Origin: an uncultured bacterium
GTDB lineage: Bacteria; UBA8481
Assembly (NCBI GenBank): GCA_964499705.1
Contig: CAZCME010000001.1
Span: 8,943-72,942, forward strand
Direction of reading: 5' to 3'
Length of the DNA: 64,000 bases
The notes under the pieces are model-generated. The model searched no databases. It saw only the letters and a list, made by a program, of their open reading frames with translations, and was not told the DNA's origin. A program made the position numbers and the translations under genes. Of this stretch, positions 4,138-55,800 are shown one piece after another; position 1 is the stretch's first letter, and the number at the start of each line of letters is the position of its first letter.

Positions 4138-4164
4138 AACCCGGGAGTCGGAATCAGGGATTAT

Positions 4165-12675: not shown

Positions 12676-12722
12676 AGTTATAATACTCCGGCCGCGAAAG
12701 AACAAGGGGTATTTAAAGGATT

Positions 12723-30498: not shown

Positions 30499-30504
30499 GT
30501 CCGC

Positions 30505-31581: not shown

Positions 31582-31836
31582 AATCGAAAGTACACACCGC
31601 ATGCCGGATCATGTGACACCTGTCATCTTGCCGTATGAAGCAACAAGTAAGAAAAAGTACACTGTGAATCGTTGGTCGCGTCGGTAATGAATCTTATGAT
31701 ACGCAGGGCGATTTTTTCATGAAGAACGATCGTCGCGGCACAGTGCATTTCATGAATCTATTCGCGGGAGAAAACAGGACGGTGCGGAGCAACTTGATGC
31801 GGGGCATGTCGGGGGCGACGGGACACGAATGATCTG

Positions 31837-34800
31837 ATGAAAACAAGGCGATCACCGTCGCAGCCTTCCTACGCTCTCCTCGCATCCCTCTTCCATCGAT
31901 TCATCCTCTTAGCATCTCTCTTCCTCGTCGTGACATCCGTGGAGGCATGGACTCTCGCCGATCAGCAGATGCCGACGTCCTGGGCCGGCCACTCGTACAC
32001 GCCGTCGCCCGGCGACTGGCGTTACTTCGGCGTCTATCAGGTGATGACCGACCGGTTCTACGACGGCAATCCTTCGAACAACACGGCGCATAATTATTCC
32101 ACCGACTTTGGCGCGCCCTCGGGCCAGCTTCCCACGGAAGGCAACCGCCGGACGATCGGCGGCGACTTCCAGGGCATGAAGGAGAACATCGACTACATCA
32201 AGTCGCTCGGTTACGACGCCATCTGGATCTCCAATCCGTTCATGGGCACCGAAGCCAACGGTTACGCGCCGACGACGTACAACTGCATCGACCCGAAGCT
32301 CGGCACGGTCCAGGAATTCCGCGATCTCGTCGACGCCGCGCACGCGCGCGGGATGTACGTCATTGTCGACATGGTCGGGAACCACTTCGCGAACTGGTTC
32401 ACCGATCACGCCTTCAACGGCGCCGGTTACGGCACTCCGACGTATGCCACGGATGCGTCCAAGCGTTACGGCGCGACCTTCAACGACGCGATCGGGGAGG
32501 GGAACTTCCACAACTACGGCAACATCTCGAACTGGAACGCGCCGTGGGACCTGGAGCACGGCGAACTGGTCGGACTTGACGACCTCATCACGGAAGACGC
32601 GTATGTCCGGAACTACGTCATCGACCACTACGTCAACATGATCAAGGCTTTCGACATCGACGGATTCCGCGTCGACGCGATCAAGCACGTGAACATCAAC
32701 GATTGGGCGTTGATCTGCTCCGGGATCCGCGCCGGAGCCGCCGCCGTAGGAAAGAGTAACTTCTACATGTTCGGCGAAGCCTTCTCCGGTTCGCACGACG
32801 CCGTCGGCTACTACACCGGCAACAAGGCCGGCACGGGCACGAAGATCATGAACGGCATGATGGACTACGCGATGTACCAGCAGGGTGTGCCGTGGATGCT
32901 CTTCAATGACCAGTGGGGCCTGAAAAACTGGGTCGCGGGAATGAACAACGCTTCGTACGACATGGGACAGGGGAACGGGACGACGGTGTGGAACTTCGGG
33001 AACATGAATGTCCACTTCGCCGACAACCATGACGTCGCGCGGTTTCTCTCGTCAGGAGACTGGGACAGGATGCTCTCGGTCCAGGGCATGCTGACGATGA
33101 TCGAGGGCCTGGGCGCGATGTACTACGGCGGCGAGCAGGCCTTCAACACGGCGGGGACGGACGGACGCGGGGCGTACGGCGCGCTGTACGATCATCCCTT
33201 CCAGTGGGACAACGCGGTCGGCGACAACGTCAATATGTCGTTCTGGTTGTATAAAAAGATCGCGAAGATGATGGCGGCGCGGCGACGCATCGGCGCCGGG
33301 CTCGGTACCGGAACGACGCTTCTGGATCCCCAGAACGGCATCTTCGCCTTCCGGCGCGGGAATGACGCCTTCGTCGCGATCAACGGCACGAACATGACGC
33401 AGTCGGCGACGTTCAACGTCGGGCTCTCAGGGACATGGACGAACCTCGTCGACGGATCGTCGGGTTCGGGCCCGAGCCTTGCGATTTCGCTTCCGAAGTA
33501 CGAAGTGGGCGTCTGGATCCGGAACATCGCGGATCCGGTTCTCGAGCCGATGGTGACGGATGTTTCTCCCGCCAACGGCGCCTTGACCGGCGCGACGACA
33601 TTGACGATCACCTTCGACCAGAACATGGATCCGGCATCGACGATCGCGGCGGCCTCGATCGCGCCGGATCCGGGCGGAACATGGAACGTGACCGGCGCGA
33701 CGCTGACGAGGACGGGGATGACGGTGCAACCGGGGGTCACGTACGTTGTGAAGGTCGCCAAGACCGCGACGAACGCGACCGGCAAGGCGATGTACGGCGG
33801 ATTCGTCTCGCGGTTCAAGGGGAGCTATTCTTCTCCCGTCGTCAACGGCAATGTCATTACGTTCAACTACCAGGGCGGAGCGACGGCCAAGGTTAAAGGA
33901 AACTGGGCGATTACGGGGGGATCGAACGGAGTCTACACGGCGGCTTACAACGCGGCGTGGACGGGCCCTGCCGTGGACATGATTCAGTCGAACGGTTTGT
34001 GGACCGCGACGATCACGCTGACGGAGAACACGGTCTTCGAGTACGGCTTCGAGATCAACGGCGCGTGGACGAACGATCCGGTGAACACGAATCATGCGGT
34101 AAACGGGAACGACAGGTTCACTTCCGGAGCGGGAACTCCTGCCGGTCCGGATTCCGTACCGCCGGTTTTCGGCGGTCTGACATCGGCGACGGACGCGGGG
34201 ACGAGCGGAAAAGTCAACCTCGCGTGGTCCGCCGCGACGGACACCTCGACGCCGATCAAGTACAACATCTTCTGGACCAATAACGCGGCGGATTCCGTCG
34301 CGAAGTCGTACGTCGACATGACCCCGAACGCGGTCGTTTCCAGCGCGACCTCGTACCAGGTGACGGGACTGACGAACGGCGCCCAGTACTGGTTTGTCGT
34401 CCGTGCCGAAGACGCCAAGACCGGAGCGGGCGGGCCGGGCGGCGGAAACCAGGAGACGAACCTCGTCGACAGGACTGCAACGCCGACAGGACTCGCTTCG
34501 CCGATCGTCAATGGCAATGTCGTGACGTTCGCGTTTTCGGGAGGCGGGCTCGGGAAGGTGAAGGGGAGCTGGATCGTGACGGGCGGGTCGAACGGGAACT
34601 ACACCGCCAACTACGATTCGACATGGAACGCGGGCGCGACGACGAACATGGTTCTTTCCGGATCGGTCTGGCGCTGCACGTTCACTCTTCCCGCCAACAC
34701 CACCTTCGAGTACGGATTCGAGATCGACAGCGCCTGGACGAACGATCCGTTGAACACGAATCATGCGGCGAACGGAAACGATAAATTCACGACGGGCGCC

Positions 34801-37800
34801 GCATCCAACGGAGACACGACGCCTCCATCCTTCGCAGGCCTGGCGACGGCGGTCGATTCCGGAACGGGCGGACGGGTATCCCTCGCATGGGCCGCCGGCA
34901 CGGATGCTACAGGCCCCGTCCGATACAACGTCTACTGGACGAACAGCGCCGCCGCGCAGGTCTCGAAGTCGTACGTCGACGGGACGCCCGATGCGACGAC
35001 GACATCGACGTCGTACCTCGCCAGTGGATTGACGAACGCGTCCCAGTACTGGTTCGTTGTCCGCGCGGAGGACTCCGCGTTCGGCAGCGGTCCCAACGGC
35101 GGCAACCAGGATACGAATCTCGTCGATCAGACGGCGACCCCCTCGGGCGCCTCCAACACGGCGCCTACCGCGAACGCCCAGAACACGACGACGCCGCAAA
35201 ACACGGCGAAGGTCATCACGCTGACGGGATCGGATCCCGAAGGGAGCTCGCTGACGTTCGCGATCGCGACGCAGCCTTCCAATGGAACGCTGTCGGCGAT
35301 CACCGCGATCAACGCGACGTCGGCGTCGGTGACGTACACGCCGAACACGAACTTCAACGGCAACGACGCTTTCACCTTCACGGTCAACGACGGCCTGCTG
35401 ACATCGGCGTCCGCCAATGTCGGCGTGAACGTCGTCTCGGGCGCGCGGCCGCCGATCTACATCTCCTTCCTCTGGCACATGCACCAGCCGAAGTACTGGC
35501 CGGACGAGCCGGCGACGGCGACGGAAGGGCGGACCGACTACGGATTCAGCATCCGGACGATCCACACGGACCGCACCGGGCCTTACACTTCGTGGCCGAT
35601 CGATGCGATCCAGAACGCGATGAACGCCGGTCTCGCAAACAGCGGAGCGCAAGTGACATTCACGGGATCCTTGACGGAAAACCTGAACGACTACGAGGCG
35701 GCCGGATGGGCTTTTGGCGGATGGAAGAACCGCTGGCGCGAAGGAATGCAATGGCGAACGGCGCTCAATAATCCCCGACTCGACATCACCCAGTTCCCTT
35801 ACTTCCACGTCCTGCAGCCGCTCATCGGCGACAAGTGGACGCGCGAGCACATCCGGCTGTTCCAGAACATGTACCAGGGAACGTTCTCCGCGGCGGCGCA
35901 ATCAAAAGGCATGTTCCCGACGGAGAATTGCGTCTCCGATTTCCTCATTCCGGCATGGAAGGACAACGGCATCGACTGGGTGATCGTGGACAATGTCCAC
36001 TTCGACCGCACGGCGCTGGGGTATCCTTGGAGCTCCGGCGGAAACCTGTACGAGATGAACGGCGCCGACATCCTCAATCCGAATCCGAACGACTGGGTCC
36101 AGTTGAATGGGCTCTGGGCTCCGACCAAGATCTCCGCCCGCTGGGGCCATCAGCCTCACTACATGCAGTACGTCGATCCGACGACCGGCACGGTCCGCAA
36201 GATGATCGCGGTGCCGGGATCGCGGTATCTCGGCAACGAGGATGCGCGCGGCGGGTACGGAGCGCTCCAGTATGACGCCGTCCTGTCGCAGCTCGAGCCG
36301 TTCAACACGGATCCGGCCCATCCGATCCTCGTCGTCCTGCCGCACGACGGCGACAACTACGGCGGCGGCACGGACGGGTATTATCACGGCAATTTCTCCG
36401 CGATGATCTCCTGGCTCCAGTCGAATCCCACGCGGTTCCAGTTGATCACGATCCAGGATTATCTCTCCATGTTTCCGCCGGACCAGAGCGACGTGATGCA
36501 CATCGAGCCGGGCGGATGGTCGGGCGCGGACAACGGCGATCCGGAATACAAGAAGTGGAACGGAGATCCGGCGGCGGACGGATACAGTCCGGACCGGAAT
36601 TCGTGGATGACGCTGATGGCGGCGGAGAACCGGGTCGAGCACGCGGAGCGGCTCCAGCCGACGAACGGCAACGTCGCGACGGCGATCCGGAAGATGATGG
36701 TCGGCATGACGTCCTGCTATTGGTACTGGGACGGCTCTCCGCCGTGGGACTACCACGTGACGCGCGCCTGCAACGAGGCGGTCGGGCTCGTCGATCCGAT
36801 CATCGCTGGCGGCGGCGCCGATCTCCAGCCGCCGACGGTCTTCCTGCCGCAGCGCGATCCGTACAATCCGGGCGGCAAGGAATGGAACATCCAGCAGGCC
36901 TCGAACCTGAAGGTCTTCACGCCGGCCTACGACGTCTCGGGCCTCCGGCGCGTCGAGCTGAAGTATCGCGTGGACGACGACGGGAATAATCCGATCGCCG
37001 ATGTCGCGAATGAGGTGTACGCGGGCGGCGCGGGTGTCGGCGCCTGGCAAACGCTCTCGATGACCGTCGATGCCTTCCCGGCGTCGCGGTCGAATCCGCA
37101 GCCGATCTATCGCGCCAACATCTACGCCGCGACGATAGACGGGACGAACCTGGCGAACAAGCTGGTGGATTATTACGTCGAGGCGGAAGACAACGCGGGG
37201 CTTATCACGAAGACCGTGATCCAGCATGTGAAGTGGGGCGGCACGGGTGGCGGCGGCGGCGGCACGACGATCTGGTCGCCCTCGGCGCCGACGTCATCGG
37301 ACACGATCACGGTGACGTGGACGAAAGCCAGCAAGCTCCATTGGGGCGTCAACAACTGGGTGGCGCCGAATGCGGTCTATTGGCCGGCGGGAAGCGTCGC
37401 GTGGGACGCTCAGTCGATCGAATCGCCCCTGGACGGCAGCTTCAAGATCGTGATCGGACCGTTCAATAATCCGGCCCAGACCGTGACGGAAGTGAATATC
37501 GTCTTCCACAACAACGACGGCACCTGGGACAACAACGGCGGACTCAACTGGAAGATTCCGATTCTCGTGGATACGGCGCCGCCCGCGCGTCCGGCGACAC
37601 CCATTCTCACCTCCGGCAATACGACGATCGATCTCACCTGGGCGGCCAATGGTGAAGCGGACTTGAACGGCTATCGCCTTTACCGCGCGCTCGCCGCCGC
37701 GGGACCGCACTCGCTCATCGCGACGCTCGCCAGGACCGCGACGACGTTCAACGACAGCGGGCTTTCGAACGGGACGACGTATCACTACGTATTACGCGCG

Positions 37801-40800
37801 TATGACAATGCGGCGAACACGTCGGACAGCTCGATCTCCACGTCGGCGACGCCGTCCGGCGTGGACGTCACTCCGCCGAGTATCACATCGGGCCTCTCGG
37901 CGCTCTCGCTACAGCAGGCGGTGCGGATTACGTGGAATCGCAATCTGGAATCCGACATGGATTCGTACGTGATCTTCCGCAGGACGAGCTCCGGCGTCTT
38001 CACGCAGGCGGCGCTGGCCGACAGCGTGACGTCGACATACACCGATACGGGGCTTTCGGCAGGGGAGACGTACACGTATCTGATCCGTGCGCGGGACCGT
38101 TCCGGCAATCTCGCGGACTCGTCCGCGACGGCGACGGCGGTTGCTCAGCCGAATACGCCGCCCGCGGCGCCGTCGGGCTTCTACGCTTTGCCGTGGGATT
38201 CCTCGGTACGGTTGCGGTGGAATCGGAACACGGAGGGCGACTTTGCGGGATACCGGGTCTTCCGCGCAGGTGTTACGGGCGGGCCCTACACGCAGATTTC
38301 CGGGTTGCTGACGGACACGCAGTTCACGGATTCGGGTCTTGCGAACGGGACGACGTATTTTTACGTTCTCGCCGCAGTGGATACCGCCGGCGGCCAGTCC
38401 TCCTATACCACAGAAGATTCAACGACGCCGCGCCCGCTCATCAATGTTCTCTTCCGCGTCGACGTCAACGGGCTTTCCGGCGTCACGATCGTCCGGATCG
38501 CCGGCGATCTCTTTACGCCCTCCTGGATCCCGACGGCCAATCCCCTGCGTGATCTTGGCGGCGGAATCTGGGGCGAGACCTTCGCGATGCCGATATCCAC
38601 GGCGCTTCAGTACAAGTACGTGACGAACGGCGCGAATTGGGAGAACGACTTCGCGACCGCTTCCGGCAAGCGCGAGATCACGGTTGTCTCTATGACTGCC
38701 GATTCGCGCATGTTCGTGAACAACAAGTGGAATGTCGCGGGCGATCCGGCGCCGACGTCGCCTCCGGGACTGCAGGCCACCGCCACGAGCCAGAAGGTGA
38801 CGCTGCGGTGGAGCAACTCCTTCGAGTACGACATCGTCGGATTCAACCTGTATCGTTCCACGACTTCGGGTTCGGGTTACTCGCTCATCGCGTCGCTCGG
38901 GACCGAGACGGGTTACAACGACACGAATGTGATCAACGGCGATACGTACTACTACGTGATGGCGGCGCGGGACCAGGTGGGACAGATCGGGCTTTTCTCC
39001 GCACAGGTCCAGGCGACGCCGGGCGCGAACCAGCCGCCCGCGGTTCCGAACGGGTTGAATGCGACGGCGGGTGATCGCCGCGTCACGCTCGTCTGGAACG
39101 CCAACGCGGAGGTCGATCTTGCCGGTTACCATCTTTATCGCGCGACGGTCGCAGGCGGGCCCTATGCGAAGATCAACACGGATACGATCCTCGGCACATC
39201 CTACGTCGACACCGGCGTCACGAACGGCGACACGTTCTATTATGTGCTAAGGTCGGTCGACATCTACGACTCGCAGAGCGCGTACTCCACGGAGGATTCC
39301 GCAACGCCTCGCGCTCCGGACACGACGGCGCCGCCGGTTCCGACCGGCCTTGTCGCGACTCCCGCTTCGGGCCAGGTCACGCTCAACTGGAACCACGTCG
39401 TCGCTGCCGACAGCACGGGCTACAATGTTTTCCGCGGGATATCCCCGTCGGGTCCTTTCGGCAAGATCAACGGGTCGCTTGCGTCGACGAACTCCTACGT
39501 CGATCTCACGGTCTCAAACGGCGTCTGGTACTACTACAACGTCCGGTCGGTCGATATGGTGAACAACCAGAGCGAATCGTCGGCGACCGTCTCGGCGCAG
39601 CCGCAGACCGCCGTCGGAGGAATCGAGGACCGGACGATCGACGGGAGCTTCTTCGACTGGAAGTACACGGACGTCCGTGCGCTCGACACATACGTCGACA
39701 ACAATTACCTCTGGTGGGACGGCTTTGCGAATCATCCGGTCGGGTACGATCCGAGCCGCGACCTGACTGCTGTGTACTCGCGCGAGGGAACTTCCGATTA
39801 TTTCTTCCGCGTCGATTTCCAGGATCTCGCGTTGGGCGTCGAGCAGACGAACATGAACCTGTATCTTGCGCTCGACTGGAATTCCGCGACAGGCCAGGCC
39901 TTCTTCCCCGACTTCGTCGACGCCCAGACGTCGCAACCGTGGGAGCTGATCATCGCGATCTACGACGGGGGCACGACAGGGAAGACTCTCTGGAAACCCG
40001 ACTGGACGACGATCGCGTCTCCGAATGTGCGCGCCTCGTTCAACAGTCAATGGGACGCGGTCGAGATCGCCGTGCCGAAATCGCACCTGACGAATCTCGG
40101 ATGGGTCTCGGGTCAGAAGATCCATCTCCAGGTCTTCACGACCCGCGACGGCACGAACAGCGGCGCGGGCGAGGTCGCGAGCCTGCCCGACATTACCGAC
40201 GCCATGCCCGACTCCTACACGCAGGACGCCTATTTGAACGGCGTCATCTCGACCGAGTCTACGGTCGGCCGCGCGAAGTATTCGGTCATCCTCCACGGCA
40301 ACCAGTCCCTTAACCCCGGCGGCGATATCAACAAGTGGATCTACGATGCTGTCGCGGTGACGCCGAACGGCAATCCGTCCGGCTATCACCGGGCGCTCCA
40401 GACGATGGAGCAATGCAACACGCCGGTGAACATTCACGTCTCCGGATCGCTCGCCGCCGTCATGGACATGGCGAACACGACGAACCCCCTGAACGACGGA
40501 CCGACATTCAACCAGCGGATTGCGGACTTCGTCGACGACGATTGGAACGACGGCCGCAAGGGTCACATCATCGGCGGCGTATACGCGGAGCACATCATGC
40601 CATATTTCCGCGACGACACATCGATCGGAATCACGATCAACTCCCGTGCGCAGGAACTCAAGACCGACGTCCTGACGAGTTTCTACTCCCTCTCCCGGCA
40701 TCCGAAGGTCTTCTGGATCCCGGAGCGCGTCGTCGATGGCCAGACGCTCGACAACGTCATCCTCGACCGCCGCACGAACACGCCGACCGGTTACACGACG

Positions 40801-43800
40801 ACGATTCTCGATAACCTGACGCACATTTACTACTGGCTCGGTTCGTCGTTCGCTCATACGAACGAGTTCAAGCTTCTCCGGATCAACGGCGTTAACGTCT
40901 TCCAGATCAACGACCATTACGATGACCGGAAGTTCTGGGCGCAGGACAACGCCGCTAATTACGAAGTCCGGACGCGGCTTCTTGATCTCGCGCGCGCCGC
41001 GGACCAGGAGCAGGTCATGATCGTCTTCGACGACTGGGAGGCCTACGCCGGCCGGTCTTTCGCGTCGCCGAACACAATCCACGACGGGCCGGACAACTTC
41101 GATGTCTCGATGAAGTGGATCGCGCAGCATCCGTGGGTCGAGGTCGTGACGCTGGAGCAGCTTCTCGACCGGAACTGGACGCCGGTCGACGCCGGGACGA
41201 ACCTGACGTATCCGAAATCGACTTATCAGTGGCTGCTGCATGCTTCGGAGATGGGCTACGACAACTGGTACTGGGGCAGCGCGCAGGAGGAGAATTTCAG
41301 CCAGCAGATTCCGCTTCTCACGGGAGATCGCTATTCGTCGCCGGCGGTTCTGAACCCGATCCCGTCCGGCAAGCGATACGGATCGATCTGGGACGCGGGG
41401 ACGATTCTCCGCGACGTCTGGAGCGACATCCAGGCGTTGCCGGGGAATCAGTTGAAGCGGCTATCGGAGCAGGGATACATCCACCTCATCTACGAGACGG
41501 CTTGGCACGACGAGGACATCTCTGATAAGGCGTGGGATCCTGTTACGCGGGTCTTCACTAATCCGGACAATACCTGGGACGGGACGAGCTATTGGGCGTA
41601 TGACCTCCACGGGCACGTGCGGCACATGGGGTATCTCGCGGAGGCGGCTCGATGGGCGGATTCGGTCTCCGCGGGGGCGCAGAGCGCGCTGACGGTGGTG
41701 CAGACGAAGGATCTGGATTACGACGGCGAGAGTGAATACATCCTGAAGAACTCGAGAGTCTTCGGCGTCTTCGAGAACGACGGCGGGCGCATGGTGCTGG
41801 GCGTCTCATACGACACGGCGCAGGGCGGATTCGTGATGGTCGGCAACATCATCACGAATGCTCCTTCGGAAGGCGAGGAAGAGGACGGCTCGCGGCGCAT
41901 CTCCGCATTCGCGGACATGAACAACAGCGCGTACATCAACGCGAATTACTCCGTCGCGACAGGGACGGACTCCATCGTCTTCACATCCCCGGATGGATTG
42001 ATCCGGAAGGATATCCGGTTGCAGCACGGTTCCGGGACGTTCGAGGCTGCATATCGCGAGAATCTTACCGGGCCCGTCTACATCAGGAACGGACTGATCG
42101 CGAACCTCCATGAGATGACGTACACCGGCGAGCGGTACGTCCAGATCGTCGGCGCGACGAACGGGTCGTACTACGGCGTGAAGAACACAAGAGCCGGCGG
42201 CGAGATTCGCCTTAACTTCGGCGGGACGACGTTCAACAGCGCCTTCACCGACGGAACGATGGATAACACGAATTCACCGTTCGTGAAGGCCGTCGAAGTG
42301 ACGGGCAACGGGAATTTCACGATGTCCTTGACGTTGAATACCGACGACACGTCGGTGATTCTCGATACGCCTCCTGTTCCCTCGGGGCTCTCGGCGACTG
42401 GTGGAAACGGCCAGGTCTATCTCTCGTGGTCGCCCGTTTCGTCGGCATCGCTCGCGGGATATCACGTCTATCGCGGCACGGTGAATGGCGGGCCTTATTC
42501 GAAGATCAGCGACACACGGGCGCAGACAAATTACACGGATACGGGTGTATCGAACGGGACGACGTACTATTACGTCGTGAAGTCGGTCTCGGTTCGCGGC
42601 GCGTCTTCGGCGAATTCGAACCAGGCAACGGCCACGCCGAATCCGCCGACCGATACGCCTGCGGCGCCGACCGGCGTCACGGCAACCGCGGGGAACACGG
42701 AGATCACGGTCAACTGGACCGCGACGGACACGACTCTGGCGGGCTGGCATGTGTACCGTAGCGCGGCGCAGGGCGGGCCGTACACGCAGGTCAATGGTTC
42801 GATTCTCACCGGAGGATCCTTCACATCGACAGCGCTCACGAACGGGACGCGCTATTACTTCGTCGTGAAGGCGCAGTCGTTGTCGGGATTGTTGTCCGCT
42901 TACTCGTCCGAAGTTTCTGAAACGCCGAGCGCGTCCGCGAATGTAACGACGGTGCTGACGGCGCCATCGGCGGGACAGACGCTGACGGGAGCGGTTCCGT
43001 TCACGGCGACCTGCACGGCGCCGCAGGGAGTGAATCGCGTCGAGTTCAAAGTCGATGGCGCGCTGGCGGGGACGGCGACGACGCCGGAGCAGGCCGGCGG
43101 CGACAGCGCGGCGGGAGTCTGGGGTGTCGGGAGCAAGACGATCACGATCGACGGCGTGAACACGGCAGGGGAGTGGACGACGGCGTGCCGGATCGCGCGC
43201 GACCCGGCATGGGATCACGCCAACGTCATGAACGGCGCATGGGCGACGCACGAGACGCCGTTCGACTACACGGATCTCTACGCCGCATGGGACGCGACGT
43301 ATCTCTACATCGGAATCCAGATCGTCGACGTGACCGACATCAAGGACCCATCGAACGCGGGCTCCTCGAATGGCACGCCCGCGCGCGCGATGAACCTGCC
43401 GCAGTGGCTCGCGTTCGACGTCGCTCCGGGCGGCTACACGGGTGTCAATGGCGCGGGTGCGAACACGGCGGAGTACGATGCGTGGAAGAAAGGCCAGCTC
43501 TTCGGAGGCGGCACCGGCGTCGATACGCAGATCTACTTTGCTTCGAACTTCTGGCAGGGACCGTTCCTCATTCCGTATCGCAATGGCTTCTTCCCGGATT
43601 CGAACACGATCGGGAAGCAACTGGGAGTCTTCCACGGCGCATCAGGCCAGGGATTGGCCGGAACGGAAGTCATCGGGCTCGACGGGACGAACTTCGTCGC
43701 TCAGGGACACAACACGGGCAGGAACTCCTTCTTCGAGCTTAAGATCCCTCTCTCGTATCTCGGCGGCCCGGATCTGGCCACGAGAACGATCGGGATCATG

Positions 43801-46800
43801 GTCGGCCAGGGGGACGGCACCAACGCGTCCGGAGTCGATTGCATTCCGGACGATCCGGCGACATTGAACACGCAGGGCGTCGAAGTGTACAACTCGCCGA
43901 AGGAATGGGCCGACGTCGACATCTTCACGGTTCCGTTCGCCAAGATCGGAACTTCGACGGGCGGCAGCGGCGCCTCGAATACCTACCGCGTCATCGTCAA
44001 CACCGCCAACTACCAGGACGGCGCGCGCGTCGTGACCGCGACGGGCATCGCGAATGGCGCGGGCGGCTCGGCATCATCATCAGCGAACGTCACTTTCGCC
44101 AACGCAGCTCCGCCGCCTCCGGCGCCGACCGGTGTCGTCGCGACGCCGGCTTCGACGCTAGTCGCTCTGAACTGGAGCGCGGCCACGGGCGCTACCGGCT
44201 ACAACGTCTATATGGCGACGGTTTCCGGCGGGCCCTACACGAAGCAGAATACGTCGCTCGTTGCGGGGACGCAGTATTCGATCCCGAGCCTGACGAACGG
44301 CACGACGTATTACTTCGTCGTGACCGCGGTGAACGGCCAGGGTCTCGAGTCGCCGTACTCGTCGCAGGTGCAGGGCATTCCGGCCGCGGGCGTCAACGTC
44401 GTCTTCACCGTCGACATGCGGAACGCCGGCGCATACTCAAGCGTCCAGGTCGCGGGCAACCAGTTCACGCCGGCGTGGACACCGTCGGCGACGCCGCTCG
44501 CGAACAACACGGGCGGGACCTGGACGGTCACGCGGTCGTTCCCGTCGGGAACGCAGATCCAGTACAAATACGTGAAGGACTCGACGGGTTGGGAAGCCGA
44601 CTTCGCGACGACGTCGAAGAATCGCGAGATCACGGTTGCCGACCAGGGTGGCGGAGTGATGTATGTCGATAACGTCTGGGGTCAGGAAGGCAATGCCGCT
44701 CCTGCCGGCCCGACGGGCGTGACCCTCACGGCCGCTCAATCGAGCATCACGGTCTCCTGGACGAGGAGCACATCCTTCGACGTCATCTCGCACTGCGTCT
44801 ACCGCTCCCAGACATCCGGCGGTCCCTGGAACCTCGTTCACGAGACCTCGACGGTGAACTCGTGGGTCGACACGGGTCTGACGAACGGAACGCGCTATTA
44901 CTATGTTGTAAGAGCGAAGGACCGCGCGAACCAATACTCCGCCTATTCGACCGAAGTGAACGCGACGCCGGGGAACGATCCGGCGCCTGCCGCGCCGACG
45001 GGCCTGGCCGCGACCGCAGGCGTCAACCAGATCGCGCTATCGTGGAATCCGAACACGGAGCCCGACCATTCCGGGTACAACGTCTGGTACACGGTCTCCG
45101 GCGGAAACGGCGTTCCCGTAAAGATCAACGGCGCGATCATTCCAACGGCCGGCTACACGCATACGAATCTCGATCCGAACCTGACGTACACGTACTACAT
45201 CACCTGCGTCGACTCGGGCGCCAACGAAGGGCCGGCGTCCGCGACGGTCGCACGCCAGCCGCTGAACGGAGGGAGCCAGCAGCCGATCTACATCGCGTAT
45301 CAGTGGCACATGCATCAGCCGATCTACTGGCCGTACGAGAATATCAGGACGACGTATACGACCCGCACGAACTACGCCTACGTCCGCGACGTCCTGGCGT
45401 GGCCCGACCGGGTGGATGCGTACACGCATAATCCGGTCGACGCCGTCGCGAACCACATGGCTTCCAAGCCCAACTGGGGCGCTCAGATCAGCTATTCCGG
45501 TTCCCTGCAGGAGAATATCAACAACATGGCCGCGGCCAGCGACGGATATTTTCCGGGATGGAACAACCGGTATGCGGAAGGACACGGCTGGACCACGACC
45601 CTCGGCAACCGCCGGGTGGATCTCGTCTCCTTCGGGTATCATCATCCGCTCCTGCCGTTCATCGATTATCGCGACGCCCGGCTCCAGATCCAGATGCACC
45701 GCCGCATCACGACCACGACATTCGGCAATCCCTACTCGCTCGGCATGTTCCCGGCCGAAAGCGCCTTCTCGGAGCGGATCATTCCGCAGCTTCTCGACGA
45801 GGGACTCCAGTGGGTGATGGTCGACAATCTCCATCTCGACCATTGCAACAAGAACTTCCCCTGGGCCGCGGGAGAAAAAATCAATCCCCCGAATCGCGCG
45901 GACGCCGTGAATCCTCCGCAGGGCACGTACATCAATCTCTCCTGCCAGACGAACACGAACTACAACGTCTCGCCCTGGGGATTGCGGCCGCACTACGCGA
46001 AATACGTGAATCCGAACGACGGCACGGAGCGGAAGATGATCATCGTTCCGCTCGAACGTTCTCTCGGCTACGACGATAGCTACGGCGACCGCACGCCGCA
46101 GGCTCGGCTCCAGGCTTTCCTGCCGCACAACACGGATCCGGCTCACCCGTTGCTCGTCGTGCTCGCGCACGACGGCGACAACGCGGGCGCTTCCGGGTTC
46201 CGGTATTACGTGGAGACGATGGGCTGGCTGGCGGGCGCGGATCCGAACCAGTTCCGATTCACGACGGTGCAGGATTATCTCCAGATGTTCCCGCCGGACG
46301 TCAACGACGTCGTCCACATCACGGACGGCTCATGGGTCGGCGCCGATCTCGGCGACCAGGAATTGAAGAAGTGGCTGGGCGATCCGTACCAGAGCGGCGT
46401 CGTGAACTTCGAGCAGGGCTTCAGCTCCGACTGGAACTCCTGGATGGTCATCACGGCCGGGAAGAACCGGATGCTGACGGCGGAAGCGATCGCGCCGGCG
46501 TCCGGCGACATCGGCGGGATCGTCTACAAGAACGGGAACAACACAGACAAGGCTTGGGCGGAGTTCCTTGTGGGCGAAGCGAGCTGCTTCTGGTACTGGG
46601 ACGGGACGGTGCAGTGGGACGAGCAGCCCTCTCGTGCCGTGGCGAACGCGATGGTGTATGCCGATCCGATCATCGCCTCCTCGCCGGGAACGGACAATAT
46701 CGCGCCGAACATCTTCTCGCTCCAGCGCGAGCCGTACAATCCGGGCGCGACCGAGGCCTTCAAGGGCGTCCAGCCCTCGGACTTCCAGGTCTTCACCTTC

Positions 46801-49800
46801 ATCTACGACGTAAACGCGGTTTCGAATGCGACGCTCTACTACCGCATCGACGCCGACGGCGAGAATCCGATCGGCGACAATGCGAACGAGATCTACGCGG
46901 GCGGAGCGGGAGTCGGGCCGTGGGTCGCGCTGACGATGGAGACGCGCGTCTACGCCATGCCGCCTGCCGCGCAGATCCAGCCGCAGTATCGCGCGGAGAT
47001 CTACCGCGCGTTCATCAACGGTCTCTCGAACACCCTCGTCGATTATTACGTCACCGCGACCGACGGCCGCGGGAATGTGTCGAAGTCCGATATTTATCAT
47101 TGCTACATCGGTGATCCGAATTCGGGAGGTGGCGGGGGACGCTGGACGCCGGCCAACCCGACGTCGTCCGACACGATCACCATCACCGGCGACAAGGCCG
47201 GAAAGCTTCACTGGGGAGTGAACGGCTGGGTAGCGCCGAACGGCGTCTACTGGCCCTCGGGCACGACGACGTATGACGCGCAGTCGGTCGAGTCTCCGCT
47301 CGACGGCACATTCAAGATCGTGATCGGGCCGTTCAATAACGCCGCGCAAGCCGTGACGCGCGTCGATTTCGTCTTTCACTACAACGACGGAACATGGGAC
47401 GCCAACAGCGGGTTGAACTATCGCATCGACATCACGAACGACACGACGCCGCCGGCCCAACCGACCGGCTTCACCTCATCGCCGGGCAACGGTTTCGTCC
47501 AGCTTGGGTGGACTCTCGGCGCGGGCGACGTCTCGTCGTACAAGATCTACCGCGGGACGACCTCGGGCGGGCCGTACTCCCAGGTCGTTTCGACCGGACG
47601 CGTCGCGACCTACACGGACACGGCGGTCGTGAATGCGACGACGTACTACTACGTCCTTCGTTCGGCCGATGCAACCGGCAATCTGTCCGATACGACGACG
47701 CAGATCTCCGCGACGCCTTCCGGCGTAGACACGACGCCTCCGGCGAAGCCTTCTAACGTGAACGCGACCGCGTCGGAGTTCGGCGCGACGGTCTCGTGGA
47801 CGGCGAACAACGAGTACGATCTGGCGGGCTATCGGATCTATCGGTCGATTACGGCAGGATCGAGCCACGTCCTTATCGAGACGACGTCGCTCACGTCGCG
47901 TTCGCACTCTGGCCTCAATCCCGCCGACACGTACTACTACGTCATCGTCGCGTTCGATTCTTCTGGAAACGCATCCGACACATCGACGGAAAAAGCGATC
48001 AAGCCGCTTGCGGCCCAGCCGCCGGCCGCTCCGACGGGCGTCGCCATCACGGCGGGCAACGCGGTCTGCACGATCACGTGGAATGCGAACGGGGAGCCTG
48101 ACCTCGCGGGATACAACGTCTACCGCGCTCAAGGCTCGTCCACCGCACCGTATGTGAAGGTGAATGGCTCGACGGTTGTCGTTACGAATTACGCCAACTC
48201 CGGCCTCACGAATGATACGACGTACTACTTCCGGATCCGCGCGGTGGACACGGCGGGCGCGGAGTCGGATTCGTCCGCGATCGTCTCCGCGACGCCCGTG
48301 GCAGGAATCACCGTGGCGTTCCGCGTGAACGTGACCGGATTCTCGCCGGGCGTGGTCCAGATCGCCGGCAATCAGTTGACTCCGACGTGGACGCCCTCCG
48401 CGAATCCCATGACGAACGAGGGCGCCAACATCTGGAAGATCGAGAAGACGTATCCGGTCGGTACGGTGATCCAGTACAAGTTTGTCCGCGACACGACGAC
48501 CTGGGAAAGCGACTTCCCGGCGGGCGCGTCGACGAATCGCGACATCACCGTTGTCGATCAGGGCGGCGGGAAGATGTACGTCAACAACACATGGAATGTC
48601 GACGGCGACGCGATTCCCGCGACGCCGACGGGATTGCAGGCGACGGCAGGAGCGGGGGCCGTGAACCTCACGTGGAATGCCGTGACCGTCTTCGACCTGG
48701 ACGGCTACTGTGTCTACCGCGCGACCGCCGTGGGCGGGCCGTATGCGAAGATCGCGAACCAGATCACGCTGACGAGCCGGAACGATTCGGGGCTCGTCAA
48801 CGGGACGACGTACTATTACTACGTCACCGCGGAGGATTCCGCGGGACAGGCGAGCGGCGCTTCGTCGACGGTGAACGCGACGCCGATCATTCCCGATACG
48901 ACCTCTCCCGCCGTCGTTTCCGGTGTCGACGCGACGGTCCAGGGCTCGACGATTCGCGTCGCCTGGAATCCCAACGGCGAAACGGATGTGGTCGGATACC
49001 GGGTCTACCGTTCCGCGAGCGCGAACGGCGCCTACACGCAGTTGAACGGGACGATCGAGACCGATTCCGACTATTCCGACTCCACGGTCTCCGTGAACAC
49101 GGTCTACCACTACCGCGTGAGGGCGCAGGATGCCTCGGGGAATCTCTCCGACACATCGAGCGCCGATTCCGCCTCGGTCACGGGCAATCCGATCGGCGTC
49201 GACGGCGATCCTTCCGAATGGACCGGCACGGGTCCAACGACCGACCGGACGTATAGCATCATCAACGGCCAGTGGATCTGGAGGGATCCGCCCGCCGACC
49301 AGCGGACGGATGCGACGGATCCGGACTCGAACTACGACCTGACGGAAGTTCGATTCACGGGCGATGTGAACGGCGTTTCGTTCCTCGGCAAGTTCACGGA
49401 TATTTCCGCCTCCAATCTTCCGTTCATCTCCCTGGCCGTCGACAAGGACCAGCTCGCCGGATCGGGCGAGGAGTGGTTCTCCTCGAACACCGACATGACG
49501 ATGGCGGACACGGGACGCCGCGATTACGAGATCGTCATCAACTCCAACAAGACCGGCTACTACGGCGTCGGCGACAACAACTGGAACTGGAGCGACACGG
49601 GATCGTCCTTCATCTCGCCGGGCAATAATGTGATCGAAGCGAACTTCCAGTGGTATTCGCTCGGGATCACCCTGCCTAAGCTCGTCCGGTTCACGATGGG
49701 CGTCGCGCAGCACGACGGCGCGGGAAGCGCCGCGGAGATCTTCGGCTCCGACGCGTTGGACGCCGTCACGACGGCGACGGGCAACACCTGGACGGAGATA

Positions 49801-52800
49801 TCCGACGGCCAGCTCGACTACAACTTCGACATTGGCTTCAACGCCGACGGCAAGGTGAACTCCGCTCCGGATACTCCGACGTGGATTGCGCCGGCGGACG
49901 GAGCGAACCTCACGTCGCCCCTGATCACGTTCCAGTGGAACCAGTCGGACACGGACGGCGCGATCGCGGTCAGTCCCTATTATGAGATCCAATACGCGAC
50001 GAACTCCGGCTTCACCACCGGGCTCGTCATCGATTCCGGCGCGGGCAACCTGACGTCGCGCGACAGGACATTCTCCGGCAGCGGCACGTACTACTCCCGC
50101 GTCCGGATGCGCGACGACTTCCTCTGGTCGGGCTGGTCCGCGACACGGACATTCTCCGTCGTCGATTCGACCGCGCCCGACGGCAGCGCGTCCGACTGGC
50201 TCGGCGTCGCCTCGACGACGGCCAACGAGAGCACGGTCGACAAGGGCGAGTGGATCTGGACGGACGCGAACACGGATGAGCGGACGGACGGCACGGATCC
50301 GGACGGAAACTACGACCTGAAGGAACTGCGCCTGAAGGGTGACACGAGCTATCTCTTCATCCTCGCGAAGTTCCGCGACATCACCACGACGACGCTGCCG
50401 TACCTGGCGATCGGCGTCGAGACCGACCAGATCTACGGAAACGGCCAGAAGTGGTTCGGTAACGGCTCCGACCTGCAGATGGACACGAACGCCTGGCGCG
50501 AACTCGAGCTCGTGATGAACAACAACAACGTCGGATTCTATTCGACGATCAACTCCTGGGTCTGGAACGACAGCGGAGCACGGACAATCTCGACGACGAA
50601 CGACCTGATCGAAGCGCGGTACGTCTGGTCGGATCTGAAGATCGTCCTGCCGAAGAAGCTCCGGTTCTCGGCGATGACGGCGGAGAACGACGCGGGCAAC
50701 GTGAAAGATCGGTACAACGCGGACGCGCTCGACGTCGTGACGCAATACAGCGGCAACACGTGGGGCGAGGTCCAGGATACCGTTCTCAACTTCTGGGTCG
50801 ATCTCGACTTCAACCGGAGCGGGCTCATCAATACCCGGCCCGGCAAGCCGTCGCTCATCGCTCCGCTCGCCGGCGTCACGCTGAACACGTCCACCGTCTC
50901 GTTCCAGTTCGCATGGAGTGACGCGGACTCCGGCGCGATCGCGAATCCGAAGATCGAGCTGCAGCTCTCGACCGATTCGGCGTTCCAGACGATCGTCGCC
51001 ACCTGCGTGGAGTTCGATCTCGACACGCTCTGCGCAGCGTCGCTTTCGTCCGGAGGCAACTTCTGGTGGCGCGTCCGGACGTTCGACGACTTCGAGACCT
51101 CGGTCTGGTCTGACACGCGCGACTTCCGCGCCGATTTCTACGCGGCGCCGATCACGCTCCTGGAGCCGCCCGACGGCATCGACACGAACACGTCCTTCGT
51201 CCGCTTCGCGTGGACGCAGCCGCTCGATGACCTCTCCGGTCTCGATTCGTTCCTCCTGGAGATCGGCACATCATCGACATTCGATACCTACCAGCAGACG
51301 CGGACGGTCGATTCGAATTCGTACCAGCTCCTGAAGCAGGGCGAGACGGTCTACTACTGGCGCGTCCGCGCGGTGGATCGAGCGGGCAACATGGCGACGA
51401 GCGCGACGCGGTGGCTGAGGCTTGACACGTCCGTGACGGTGAGCGCGGTGACGCCGACAGCGGGCGCGGCAACCAACGATTCGACGCCGACATACACGTG
51501 GACGGGCAACGGTTCGGTCTACGTCTTCCAGCTCGCGCCGGACGCGACCTTCTTCACGCTGCAGGATTCGGTGACGCTCCCCGGAACGACGTACGCTCCG
51601 AGCGGAGCGACGTATCACGCGCATGGTGGACACTACTGGCGCGTTCTCGCGTGGGACACGGTCGGCAATTCCGCTTCTACCGCGAGCCGCGCGATCGGAA
51701 TCGACACGTCGGTCAGCGTGAATTTCGGCGCGCCGGCGAACTCCACCGACACCAACCAGCAGCGGCCGGTCTTTTCATGGAGCGGCGATGCGGACACGTG
51801 GACGTTCGAGATCTCGCGCTTCACGGACTTCTCGGTTCTCTACGACAACACGACGACGGCGGCGCTGACCTATCAACCGGGCGCCAATTACGCGGGTGAC
51901 ACGTACTACTGGCGCGTCCGCGGACAGGACACGTTCGGGAATACTGCCACGGCCACCTACCGGCAGATCGTCATCGACACCGGCATCACGGTAAACCAGA
52001 CATCGCCGATCGACGGCGTCGAGACGAACGATGCGACGCCGACCTTTGCCTGGACGGGCGATGCGGACACGTACATCGTGGAGATCGCGACGGACGCCGG
52101 ATTCGCGGCGATCATGGACTCGAAGACGACGAACGGTCTCTCCCATACCCCGGCGGCGAATTACAACCAGGGACTCTTCTACTGGAGGATCCGCGCTCAG
52201 AAGACGGCCGGCTCTTCCAAGACGACACCGACGCGCACGTTCCGGATCGACACGTCCGTCGTCGTGACGCTCGTTTCGCCCGTCGCGAATCTTGAGACGA
52301 GAAGCCTCCGTCCCGTCTTCACATGGACGGGCGACGCGCTCTCATACAACTTCCAGGCTTCGACGTCGGCGACCTTCGCGACGCTCGTCGACACGACGAT
52401 CTCTTCCGGTTTGATCCGCACCGCCGCCGCCGACTATCGCGCCGACACCTACTACTGGCGCATTGTAGCGCGTGACACGGTCGGTAACATCGAGACGTCC
52501 CCGGTCCGGATCCTGATCGTCGATACCGGCGTGACCGTTTCGTCCTCCACGCCGGCTGACGGATTCCGCACGAACGATTCGACTCCGACGTTCACGTGGA
52601 CGGGGACAGGGGAGACGTACATCCTGCAGGTGTCGCGCTTCACGGGATTCGACACGTTGACGGACGTCGTCACGACGGCGGCATCGACTTATACGCCATC
52701 CGCTTACTACGGAGCCGCAGCGTATCACTGGCGCGTGATCGCTTCGGACGACGCCGGCAATATCGAGACGTCCGTCGACCGGATCGTCACGATCGATACG

Positions 52801-55800
52801 TCGATCACGGTCGCACTCTCCTCGCCGTCGAATGTGTTCCGGACGAACAGCACGGCTCCGGCATTCGCCTGGACCGGCGACGCCGACACGTGGACACTGC
52901 AGGTGGCGCGCGACGCGGCCTTCACGGCGATCGTGGAGAACCGGACCCAGACGCTTGCGTCCTTCACCGGAGCCGGTTACAGCGCCGACACGTACTACTG
53001 GCGAGTTTCCGGCGCCGACTACGCCGGGAATCGCGACACGACTTCGTCACGCTCATTCACGGTCGACACGACGGCGGCGGTGACGCTCACGTCTCCCGCC
53101 GCGTCGACGGTGACGAGCGACTCGACTCCGTCTTTCACCTGGACGGGCGACGGCGACACCTTCACGATCCAGGTCTCGTCCTCGTCCACGTTCGCGACCA
53201 TCCAGGACAGCGCGATCTCGGGCGGCTACACCTATACTCCGTCCGCCCGTTACTACGGTTCCGGCGTCTGGTACTGGCGCGTTCTCTCGCGCGACGTCGC
53301 GGGCAACGCGGAGACGACCGCGTCGCGGACATTCACGGTGGATACGGGCGTCGTCGTGACGCTCTCGACGCCCGCCGACGGCGCCCGCGTCAACTTCGTG
53401 ACGCCGACGTTCGCCTGGACGGGTGACGCCAACATCTACGTGATCCAGGTCTCGACCGCATCGACATTCGCCTCTCTCGTGGACTCGAAGACGACAACCG
53501 CCTTGAACCATACGCCGGCCTTCGCCTATCCCGCGGACACGGTCTATTGGCGCATCGTCGGTTTCGATACGGTCAATGTCGAGACGAGCGCATCGCGCGT
53601 TCTCGTGATCGACACGCAGGTGGCCGTCTCGCTCACGTCTCCCGCGAACGGATCCCGGACGAACGACTCGACGCCCGCCTTCGCGTGGACGGGCGGCGGC
53701 GACACATGGAACATCGAGGTCTCCCGCTTCTCCAACTTCGGATCGCTTCTTGACGCCGCCACCCTGGCCGGGACGACGACCTACACTCCGGCGCAGTACT
53801 ATCCGGCGGATACGCTGTACTGGCGGGTGACCGCGCGGGATTCCGTCGGCAATTCCGCGACCACGGCGTCCCGCTCGCTCGTCATCGACACCTCCGTCGT
53901 CGCTGCGCTCTCGTCGCCCGACGATCTCTTCCAGACGAACGACACGACGCCGGCGTTCGTCTGGACGGGCGACGCCCAGACCTGGCTCCTTCAGGTCTCG
54001 CGCTTCACGAACTTCAGCGTCCTCTTCGACTCGTCCGCGACCGCGTCCACCAGCTACACGACGACGATCCTGTATCCGACGGATACCTATTACTGGCGCA
54101 TCGCAGGGCAGGACGACGTGGGGAATCGCGAGACGACCGCATACCGGACGCTCATCATCGACACCGGCCTGGTCGTCAACCTCGCGACGCCCGCGGCGAA
54201 TCTCGAGACGAAGAGCCTGAGGCCGGTCTTCTCATGGAGCGGCAACGCGGACACGTACATCTTCCAATTGAGCGCATCGGCAGCGTTCGCGACGATTCTG
54301 GACAGCCAGACGGGCGCGACCGCGACCTTTACGCCCGTGGCCGATCGCGCCGCCGACACGTACTACTGGCGCGTCGTGGCGAAGGACAACGCGGGCAACA
54401 CGGAGACCTCCGCGTCGCGCGTTCTCTTCATCGACACGGCACCGCCGTCCGCCCCGGCGCTCGCGTCCCCCGCCGACAGCGCGACGACGCGTAACGTCAT
54501 CACGGTCTTCACGTGGACGGGCGATGCCGATTCGTACGCCATCGAGCTGGCGCGCGACTCCGTCTTCGCTTCCGTCGTCCTCGCGGAGACGAGGCCCACC
54601 GTTTCGGCGACGTCGCCTCAGCTCGGGCGCGACACTTACTGGTGGCGCGTACGCGGCTACGACGACGCGGGCAACGCGGGACCCTGGAGCGGCATGCGGG
54701 CTCTGTTCGTCGATACGCTCATCACGGTATCGGGCACGACACCCGCGGACGGCGCGCGGACGAACGACTCCACGCCGACCTTCACCTGGACCGGCAACGG
54801 CGACACGTACACGATCGAGGTGTCGCGCCTCGCCAATTTCGCCGCGCTCACGATCCAGGCGACGACGACGGCCTCGACCTTCACGGCCGGAGGTTCGCTC
54901 GGCGCCGACACGTACTACTGGCGCGTCAGCGCCGTCGATTCGTTCGGCAATGCCGGCGTTTCGACGACCCGTTCCTTCGCCGTCGACACGTCCGCGACGG
55001 TGACGCTCGCGACGCCCGCGGACAATACGGTCACGAACGACACAACACCCTCCTTCGCGTGGTCGGGCGACGGAGATACCTGGACGATCCAGGTCTCGCG
55101 ACTCGCCAACTTCTCGACGATCTACGACGCGTCGACCTCCGCCGTGGCGACATACACGACGGGAGGCTATTACGGAGCGGACACGTACTACTGGCGTGTC
55201 GTCTCGCTCGACCAGGCGGGCAACTCGGAGACCTCCGGATCGAGGATCATCGTGATCGATACCGCGGTATCCTCGACGCTCGCCACGCCGGCCGACAGCA
55301 CCCGGACGAGCGATTCGACTCCCTCCTTCACATGGACCGGCTCGGGCGACACGTACCGGCTCGATATTTCGAAGTCGATCACGTTCGCGCCGCTGCAGGC
55401 GACGGCCACGACGTCGGCGGTTTCGCATACGCTCACGACATACCTCGGCCAGGACACTTACTACTGGCGCATCGTTTCGCTCGACGTGGCCGGCAATACC
55501 GATACGTCCGCGGGCAGGATGCTTGTGATTGACACGTCCGCGACGGTGTCGCTGACGTCTCCCGCCGCAGGCACACGGACGAACGACTCAACGCCCGCGT
55601 TCTCATGGAGCGGGGAGGCGGATACATGGACGTTCGAGATCGCCCGGATCGCGGACTTCTCCGCGCTCGTGGAGAGCCGCGTCACCGCGGCGACGTCCTA
55701 TACGCCCTCGACCCTCTATTACGGCCATGACACGTATTACTGGCGTGTCTCGGGATCCGACGTCGCGGGTAATTCCGCCGTCGCCGCCTCCCGGACGCTT

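Follow-up and report, generated by a model that had tools for sequence, protein, structure and literature searches.

A divergent GH57-like module, predicted to be catalytic, within a giant putative alpha-glucan-degrading protein of an uncultured bacterium

The glycoside hydrolase (GH) families GH57 and GH119 form a small second lineage of alpha-amylases, few members of which have been characterised. A 64,000-nucleotide stretch of DNA from an uncultured bacterium (assembly GCA_964499705.1, contig CAZCME010000001.1, positions 8,943 to 72,942; hereafter the window, numbered from its first letter) raises the question of how far such a module can depart from the textbook motifs of GH57 and still be an enzyme. 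A first-pass annotation, made from the letters alone, had noticed three GH57-like modules: two collinear ones with recognisable active-site motifs (modules 1 and 3) and, between them, one with non-canonical motifs (module 2), for which either an altered specificity or a binding-only, lectin-like role was proposed. One open reading frame (ORF) of 9,660 aa (31837..60819, + strand), with a single terminal stop in its translation, contains all three. The GH57-type nature of the three modules held up, on Pfam, profile and fold comparisons for modules 1 and 3 and on fold together with a profile alignment for module 2. With a probability of about 0.68, we read the ORF as encoding a giant surface alpha-glucan-degrading protein: modules 1 and 3 would act as retaining hydrolases, and module 2 is predicted to be active too and not a lectin.

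Since the answer turns on module 2, its features are given first. Alignment A1, on which the N-terminal boundary partly depends, is described below.

39604..42366, + strand: module 2 as a whole, with N- and C-terminal beta-sandwiches (aa 2590-3510)
39604..40251, + strand: N-terminal beta-sandwich (aa 2590-2805), from conservation in A1 and beta strands in the structural model
40252..41706, + strand: catalytic region, a divergent GH57-like (beta/alpha)7 barrel and helical region (aa 2806-3290)
40288-40308, + strand: ILHGNQS, resembling conserved sequence region (CSR) 1 (HGNQ at aa 2820, nt 40294)
40714-40731, + strand: WIPERV, CSR-3-like, with the predicted nucleophile E2963 (aa 2960-2965)
41026-41055, + strand: FDDWEAYAGR, CSR-4-like, with the predicted proton donor D3066 (FDDWEA at aa 3064, nt 41026)
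41257-41280, + strand: YDNWYWGS (aa 3141), called region V in the first-pass annotation
41491-41514, + strand: YETAWHDE, the likely CSR-5 equivalent (ETAWH at aa 3220-3224)
41707..42366, + strand: C-terminal beta-sandwich resembling the C-domain of GH57 4-alpha-glucanotransferases (aa 3291-3510)

Module 2 is not alone. A database search returned at least 326 homologues, 35-47% identical over 100% of the query, nearly all of them "hypothetical proteins" of ~1,000 aa from Planctomycetota/Phycisphaerae, Sumerlaeota, Eisenbacteria and other groups. An exhaustive profile search gathered 978 clusters (formed at 50% identity) at E<=1e-3, with 226 at E<=1e-30; Hydrogenedentota are also among their sources, and almost all carry the label "hypothetical". 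In a 35-sequence alignment of the family drawn from several phyla (A1), the segments HGNQ, NIHxSG(S/T)L, GGVxAEHIMPYFE, TPERV(I/V)R, VFDDWEAxAG(K/R)SF and ETAWH(D/E)ED vary hardly or not at all. The GH57 model PF03065 recognises eight of the 35 (best E=1.2e-8), and one matches PF09095 (AmyA-gluTrfs_C, the GH57 glucanotransferase C-domain).

The first-pass picture of module 2 as a third copy of its neighbours gives way to membership of this separate, old family of stand-alone ~1,000-aa genes. A diverged copy of modules 1 and 3 was considered and rejected because no significant similarity was found, either by blastp (E>=0.016) or by hhalign between the two families (0.6%). The relationship of module 2 to modules 1 and 3 is visible only in the fold and by way of canonical GH57, and the giant protein holds two GH57-type families (two modules of one and one of the other), each with many stand-alone relatives. 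The family of module 2 is widespread, divergent, unannotated and GH57-like. The literature searched yielded no description of either clade, though CAZy may already list them.

The fold of module 2 links it to GH57. An AlphaFold2 (AF2) model of aa 2590-3509 (pLDDT 87, pTM 0.88) has the GH57-type (beta/alpha)7 barrel, and in a Foldseek search its best PDB match was 1k1x (E=1.5e-18), which aligned over nearly the whole 636-residue chain; GH38 mannosidases (2e-13), the GH57 amylopullulanase 7e1y and AmyC (2b5d) followed. The structural modelling that the first-pass annotation had proposed as a check therefore found a GH57-like barrel in both modules that were modelled, 1 and 2, with 1k1x and 7e1y among the best matches. 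The best match of module 2 is the T. litoralis GH57 4-alpha-glucanotransferase (1K1W/1K1X/1K1Y; nucleophile Glu123, acid/base Asp214), with which it shares a (beta/alpha)7 barrel, a helical region and a C-terminal beta-sandwich in the same order. The two differ in that identity is ~11-17%, module 2 has HGNQS for HNHQP, Trp for Gly215 and no Glu79 equivalent, its CSR-5 is uncertain, and it carries several insertions; furthermore, the T. litoralis enzyme is a single 659-aa protein, whereas module 2 is secreted and fused to other modules. Module 2 also has an extra N-terminal beta-sandwich of ~210 aa, conserved throughout its family and absent from the T. litoralis enzyme. Its invariant or nearly invariant positions in A1 include D151, E154 and W167, and most representatives of the family match the profile from about position 17. 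At the other end, an extended hhalign alignment pairs the segment DLDYDGESEYILKN of the C-terminal domain with DVDFDGREEIMLEN, and Foldseek matched this domain to galactose-mutarotase-like supersandwiches.

Profile comparison places the predicted catalytic pair. As the canonical reference we used 70 full-length relatives of the T. litoralis enzyme taken from genomes, against which hhalign aligned A1 at 85% (E=6e-6, 294 columns). The alignment pairs ILHGNQS with GIHNHQP, NIHVSGSL with NIHFSGPL, VFWIPERVV with GVWLTERVW, and MIVFDDWEA with VAVFHDDGE, and it sets E2963 on Glu123, D3066 on Asp214 and E3068 on Glu216. In the model, E2963 stands just after strand 369-371 and D3065-D3066 close strand 471-477, in agreement with the definition of GH57, in which the nucleophile lies at beta4 and the proton donor at beta7 (PMC6037648). 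Judged from the alignment, E2963 and D3066 would thus supply the Glu/Asp pair of CSR-3 and CSR-4, and both are invariant in A1. Among more divergent representatives (143 sequences, counted over those that cover each site), 87 of 90 retain the Glu (97%). As for the motifs that the first-pass annotation had proposed, HGNQ and FDDWEA were placed in the correct register, while the nucleophile region, W-I-P-E-R-V, had been missed. Taking YDNWYWGS as region V was probably a misassignment, as the extended alignment instead pairs the invariant E-T-A-W-H with D-A-Y-W-H.

Where relatives of module 2 occur in other genomes, starch-related partners recur. At one locus (L005), a module-2-type gene is followed on the same strand by a module-1-type GH57 gene and then by a GH13 gene, all stand-alone, so that the trio comprises the same three catalytic types that are fused in the giant protein; its GH57 protein is 47% identical to module 1 and has HMHQP and HDGDN. 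At another (L008), the module-2-type gene lies amid genes for an alpha-glucan phosphorylase, a GH13 protein, ABC permeases and a pullulanase. Direct fusions also occur: GH57 with module 2 (P0259), GH13 with module 2 (P0263), and CBM53 and CBM25 with module 2 (P0255). In two unrelated large contigs (L004, 8169-13102; L007, 7957-13045), the module-2-type gene sits directly beside secE-nusG-rplK, a conserved synteny with no carbohydrate genes nearby.

Several observations weigh against an active, alpha-glucan-directed module 2. By itself it has no Pfam match at E<=0.01, PF03065 included, and no NCBIfam match, and searches of PDB sequences with both the single sequence and the family profile returned nothing. 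Its sequence link to GH57 is the 85% profile match, and the Foldseek global TM-scores are low (0.30-0.40), with GH38 as the next-best fold. In CSR-1, HGNQS retains the first His and the Gln, with the second His replaced by Asn and the Pro by Ser. The Glu79 position, in CSR-2, is His in module 2 and Ser or Ala in its family, and is not conserved. The ETAWH/DAYWH stretch by itself is not significant against canonical GH57, leaving the CSR-5 assignment without statistical support. The Asp is kept in 75 of 104 divergent representatives and replaced in ~28%. Finally, four of the seven stand-alone loci examined have no carbohydrate-related neighbours, and at one locus (L002, gene 10001-13144) the module-2-type gene lies among genes for a GH1 protein, two PF10091 proteins, an ABC importer and a GH94 protein, a setting that looks beta-glucan-directed.

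Could module 2, then, be a non-catalytic GH57 derivative that helps its neighbours hold on to polysaccharide, as the lectin-like proposal would have it? The missing Pfam match, the departures in CSR-1 and CSR-2 and the loss of the Asp in part of the family would fit, and "-like" groups of GH57 that lack one or both catalytic residues are known (PMC6037648). Yet both the Glu and the Asp are in register with Glu123 and Asp214, and the segments around them, TPERV(I/V)R and VFDDWEAxAG(K/R)SF, show no variation among 35 homologues that span several phyla. Moreover, the family consists mostly of stand-alone, secreted proteins of ~1,000 aa, and some members have CBM53 and CBM25 modules of their own; such starch-binding modules would be redundant if the module 2 domain were only a binder. 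We consider a lectin-like module 2 quite improbable. An altered specificity is possible.

A second alternative, which we regard as on balance unlikely though appreciably less so than a lectin, is that module 2 is active on something other than starch, be it another alpha-linked glycan or a glycan that co-occurs with starch-like material. The clan does include GH57 alpha-galactosidases and GH38 alpha-mannosidases, the latter being the second-best fold match; a different -1 subsite would fit the changes in CSR-1 and CSR-2; and, besides the L002 neighbourhood, the window itself has genes for a GH3 protein, a PF10091 protein and a solute-binding protein 20-29 kb upstream. Against this stand the recurrent fusion to GH13, module-1-type GH57, CBM20, CBM25 and CBM53 domains, the operon with GH57 and GH13, and the alpha-glucan locus with phosphorylase and pullulanase. 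In addition, it is an alpha-glucan-active 4-alpha-glucanotransferase that gives module 2 both its best fold match and its sole significant profile match. GH38 itself was tried as an assignment for module 2. GH38 enzymes (Bl_Man38B 7UFS, Golgi mannosidase II) have the clan architecture of a (beta/alpha)7 barrel and beta-sandwich in common with it, and employ an Asp nucleophile and a metal site; the motifs of module 2 instead fit the GH57 Glu/Asp pair, and its fusion partners are all alpha-glucan-related. GH38 was rejected because none of the 35 family members has a Pfam GH38 match (PF01074) and the fold matches are weaker than those to GH57. Based on its context, module 2 most likely works on alpha-glucans alongside GH13 and GH57, by hydrolysis or transglycosylation.

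The flanking modules are a more conventional case. Their features, with those of CSR-1 to CSR-5 that were located, are as follows.

35434..37566, + strand: module 1 (aa 1200-1910), a GH57-type (beta/alpha)7 barrel with helical region and C-terminal beta domains (PF03065, E=7e-13)
35470-35490, + strand: module 1 CSR-1, LWHMHQP
35776-35793, + strand: module 1 CSR-2, RLDITQ
35914-35931, + strand: module 1 CSR-3, FPTENC, predicted nucleophile E1363
36340-36369, + strand: module 1 CSR-4, PHDGDNYGGG, predicted proton donor D1504
36709-36735, + strand: module 1 CSR-5, TSCYWYWDG
45271..47436, + strand: module 3 (aa 4479-5200), a paralogue of module 1 (PF03065, E=2e-15; member of alignment A2, below)
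45301-45321, + strand: module 3 CSR-1, QWHMHQP
45748-45765, + strand: module 3 CSR-3, FPAESA, with E4641
46165-46194, + strand: module 3 CSR-4, AHDGDNAGAS, with D4779
46579-46605, + strand: module 3 CSR-5, ASCFWYWDG

A motif search of the ORF translation recovered every motif that had been quoted, at the expected places: HMHQP at aa 1214 and aa 4491 (nt 35476 and 45307), the nucleophile segments FPTEN at aa 1360 and FPAES at aa 4638, HDGDN at aa 1503 and aa 4778, CYWYWDG at aa 1627 and CFWYWDG at aa 4917. The sites of the modules stood, but modules 1, 2 and 3 all extend beyond the ranges first given for them. The collinearity of modules 1 and 3 reflects paralogy (blastp, 43% identity over 624 aa, E=1e-157), with 42-58% identity across both parts. 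Module 1 is nearer to external homologues (~54%) than to module 3 (47%), so the pair did not arise by a recent duplication within the gene.

Both modules score above the PF03065 gathering threshold of 21.2 bits (48.9 for module 1, 57.3 for module 3); together with their paralogy, this goes well beyond what chance would give. A2, a 27-sequence alignment of their clade, aligned with the canonical 4-alpha-glucanotransferase family at 99.6% (E=5e-24, 404 columns) and covers all five CSRs of the T. litoralis enzyme, mapping E1363 to Glu123, D1504 to Asp214, D1506 to Glu216 and D1316 to Glu79; the Cys of SCYWYW falls on Asp354. In CSR-2 of the clade, an Asp is invariant in place of Glu79. Searched against the PDB, the A2 profile found the amylopullulanase 7e1y (E=2.3e-6) and 1k1w (E=2.4e-4), pairing GIFPxEN with the nucleophile segments of solved enzymes, GVWLTERVW included; a PDB sequence search with module 1 alone returned nothing relevant. 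The AF2 model of module 1 (pLDDT 88, pTM 0.90) had GH57 proteins as its 18 best Foldseek matches in the PDB, 7e1y first (1.6e-19), then 1k1x and 3n8t; module 3, given its 42-58% identity, is expected to share the fold. Modules 1 and 3 thus match the Pfam model and have five CSRs with the Glu/Asp pair, and the (beta/alpha)7 barrel with helical region is seen in the model of module 1 and expected in module 3. These comparisons bear out the earlier register of D-G-D-N against D-G-E-K and the reading of FP(T/A)E as the nucleophile region.

The suggestion that the DGDN state marks a new subfamily was overstated for modules 1 and 3. More than 1,500 homologues are found at E<=1e-3, the best ~55% identical, mostly proteins of ~1,000 aa from Ignavibacteria, Bacteroidota and Rhodothermales with an Ig_N_CWD1 domain, the GH57 domain and a C-terminal tail of the type IX secretion system (T9SS). 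None of the 27 sequences of A2 departs from W-H-x-H-Q-P, the Glu of FPxE, H-D-G-D-N or W-Y-W. Because HDGDN is the invariant state of so common a clade, modules 1 and 3 are ordinary members of an existing, apparently uncharacterised clade and not the novelty of this gene. No characterised member of the clade was found. The position equivalent to Asp354 is Cys1627 (36715-36717) in module 1 and Cys4917 (46585-46587) in module 3; in A2 it is Asp in 17 of 27 sequences and Cys in 10, a split at CSR-5 that could mark two functional subgroups.

Compared with known systems, the best structural and sequence-profile match of modules 1 and 3 is to a GH57 amylopullulanase, that of Staphylothermus marinus (7E1Y); the amylopullulanases of this kind also include Aquifex aeolicus 9IHU and related entries. 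The nucleophile segment of 7E1Y, GIWTPEMAF, aligns with GIFPxENAF of modules 1 and 3. Identity is 12-14%, however, and the clade is distinct in its invariant HDGDN, its S(D/C)YWYWDG segment and its architecture of Ig_N_CWD1, GH57 and T9SS tail. Relative to the T. litoralis enzyme, modules 1 and 3 have DGDN for DGEK and a beta4-to-beta7 segment ~50 residues longer, the spacing from Glu to Asp being 141 in 20 of the 27 A2 members versus 91 in canonical glucanotransferases. GH119, the family of the Bacillus circulans alpha-amylase IgtZ, is a small sister of GH57 that is likewise found in large multi-modular secreted amylases; it has the predicted catalytic residues Glu231 and Asp373, a spacing of 142. 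The clade of modules 1 and 3 may be GH119 or close to it, whereas Pfam puts both modules in PF03065 (GH57). According to published descriptions, GH119 and GH57 have their five CSRs and their catalytic machinery in common (PMC6037648, PMC5347038). The "Glu231" that appears in PMC5347038 is a residue of a GH13 enzyme and not of GH119.

How are these modules put together in one polypeptide? The remaining parts of the giant protein are listed below.

~aa 1-37, + strand: N-terminal hydrophobic segment, a putative signal peptide, read from the letters
32038..33465, + strand: GH13 alpha-amylase catalytic domain and C-terminal beta domain (aa 68-543; PF00128 E=4.6e-38, PF02806 E=6e-6)
38428..38754, + strand: CBM20-like copy 1 (aa 2198-2306), 43-47% identical to copies 2 and 3
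44374..44706, + strand: CBM20 starch-binding module, copy 2 (aa 4180-4290; PF00686 E=1.4e-6, 28.4 bits, cut-off 23.3)
48295..48621, + strand: CBM20-like copy 3 (aa 5487-5595), 52% identical to copy 2 (PF00686 E=0.005, below the cut-off)
51166..59649, + strand: tandem Ig-like (Big_13) repeats, ~31 of ~100 aa each (aa 6444-9271; PF19077 E=7.5e-44 and self-comparison)
60592..60816, + strand: C-terminal sorting domain of T9SS type A (TIGR04183, 26.6 bits, cut-off 23, in a scan of the last 160 aa)

From the Pfam and NCBIfam scans, the order of domains is the putative signal peptide, GH13, duplicated segments containing Fn3 domains, Big_9 and module 1; then Fn3 repeats, CBM20-like copy 1, module 2, Fn3, Big_7, CBM20 copy 2 and module 3; and then Fn3, CBM20-like copy 3, two paralogous domains, ~31 Big_13 repeats and the T9SS sorting domain. 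The GH13 domain matches NCBIfam alpha-amylase models only below their cut-offs, none of the three GH57-type modules is represented by an NCBIfam model, and CBM20-like copy 1 has no CBM_20 match of its own in the Pfam scan. After the GH13 domain comes an internal duplication (33829-35136, aa 665-1100), in which aa 665-881 and ~887-1100 are ~58% identical, each copy consisting of a weak CBM20-like segment and an Fn3 domain. The paralogous pair of ~220-aa domains (49174-49866, aa 5780-6010, and 50179-50835, aa 6115-6333) shares 41% identity and has no Pfam assignment, and in a further stretch of ~390 aa (42934-44106, aa 3700-4090) Big_7 is the sole Pfam match. Both the pair and the longer stretch open with D-G-x-x-x-E-W-like segments reminiscent of carbohydrate-binding beta-sandwiches. 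The Big_13 array makes up 30% of the protein and is presumed to be a stalk or spacer; PF19077 matched 7 stretches in the part scanned, and a single repeat used as query gave 31 self-matches over aa 6444-9271. Every repeat carries the conserved segments "DTYYWRV" and "F(T/A)WTGD".

A further alternative is that the three-module arrangement is an artefact of a chimeric or mis-joined contig, the window having been taken from a metagenome-assembled genome. Proteins encoded near the giant gene match NCBI entries from a Candidatus Hydrogenedentota genome of this kind identically, and Hainich groundwater metagenomes contain the same sequence. Long internal repeats are error-prone in copy number in short-read assembly, which could have altered the number of Big_13 repeats, and another assembly from the same site has only an 18-kb contig of the upstream region. 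Nevertheless, the 28,983-nt reading frame is uninterrupted by stops, composition is even along the gene, and the repeated modules, at 42-58% identity, are too divergent for mis-joins. Independent proteins of 2,000-3,500 aa have like fusions (GH57 with module 2 and a T9SS tail, GH13 with module 2), and the gene closes with a proper sorting domain, after which comes a PorV/PorQ gene. An artefact of assembly is, in our judgement, very improbable, more so than any other alternative weighed here.

The C-terminal type A sorting domain is what is expected of a T9SS type A cargo; weak matches to PF18962, PF13860 and PF13585 were also found at this end. Immediately downstream lies the gene for a putative partner in export.

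60816..62273, + strand: gene for a PorV/PorQ-family T9SS outer-membrane protein (NF033709, E=2.9e-52, 178 bits against a cut-off of 90)

This gene and the giant one overlap, at the start of the former and the stop codon of the latter, which suggests that the PorV/PorQ protein is a dedicated, translationally coupled secretion or anchoring partner of the giant cargo. On the other side, a divergent ORF of 417 aa (30349-31602, - strand) has no Pfam or NCBIfam match, and the promoter of the giant gene presumably lies in the 235-bp gap between the two (31603-31836). Farther upstream is a cluster spanning 2863-12771, with genes for a solute-binding protein (2863-4137, + strand), a GH3 protein with a PA14 insert (4165-7065, - strand), a PF10091 "glycoamylase" protein with an F5/8 type C domain (6774-9005, - strand) and a 1,241-aa F5/8 type C protein (9046-12771, - strand). 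PF10091 includes the GH144 endo-beta-1,2-glucanases. The likeness of this cluster to the L002 neighbourhood may be a coincidence or a link.

Taken together, we propose that the giant protein would be exported, probably by the T9SS, and displayed on the surface of a Candidatus Hydrogenedentota bacterium. It would present four catalytic modules directed at alpha-glucan (starch or glycogen), namely a GH13 domain, the GH57-type modules 1 and 3, and the divergent, GH57-like module 2, with CBM20 starch-binding modules and Fn3 and Ig spacers between them. The catalytic competence of the modules is a prediction: in modules 1 and 3 the nucleophile would be Glu1363 or Glu4641, after beta4, and the acid/base would be Asp1504 or Asp4779, the first Asp of HDGDN at the end of beta7. 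Module 2 would likewise be a retaining enzyme, with Glu2963 of WIPERV as the candidate nucleophile and Asp3066 of FDDWEA as the candidate acid/base.

More tentatively, and as a possibility that we hold somewhat more open than a non-starch substrate, module 2-type proteins may constitute a new family of glycoside hydrolases, or else a deeply divergent subfamily of GH57, with a reaction distinct from those of GH13 and ordinary GH57. If so, a remodelled -1 subsite (HGNQ, no Glu79 equivalent, FDDWE) and the distinctive N-terminal beta-sandwich would go with an alpha-glucan reaction such as a particular transglycosylation, debranching or exo-activity, which would explain the repeated fusion and operon association with both GH13 and GH57.

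Modules 1 and 3 alone are ordinary members of a common clade, and it is the family of module 2 that carries the novelty: a large, essentially unannotated relative of GH57, spanning several little-known phyla, that keeps the predicted catalytic pair and is tied genetically to starch-degrading modules. With its residues defined, module 2 is a testable candidate for a new amylolytic specificity or a new CAZy family or subfamily. The 9,660-aa protein as a whole would be a striking cell-surface array of four alpha-glucan catalytic modules on a single polypeptide, exported by the T9SS in Hydrogenedentota, and as such may be relevant to how uncultured groundwater bacteria harvest polysaccharides.

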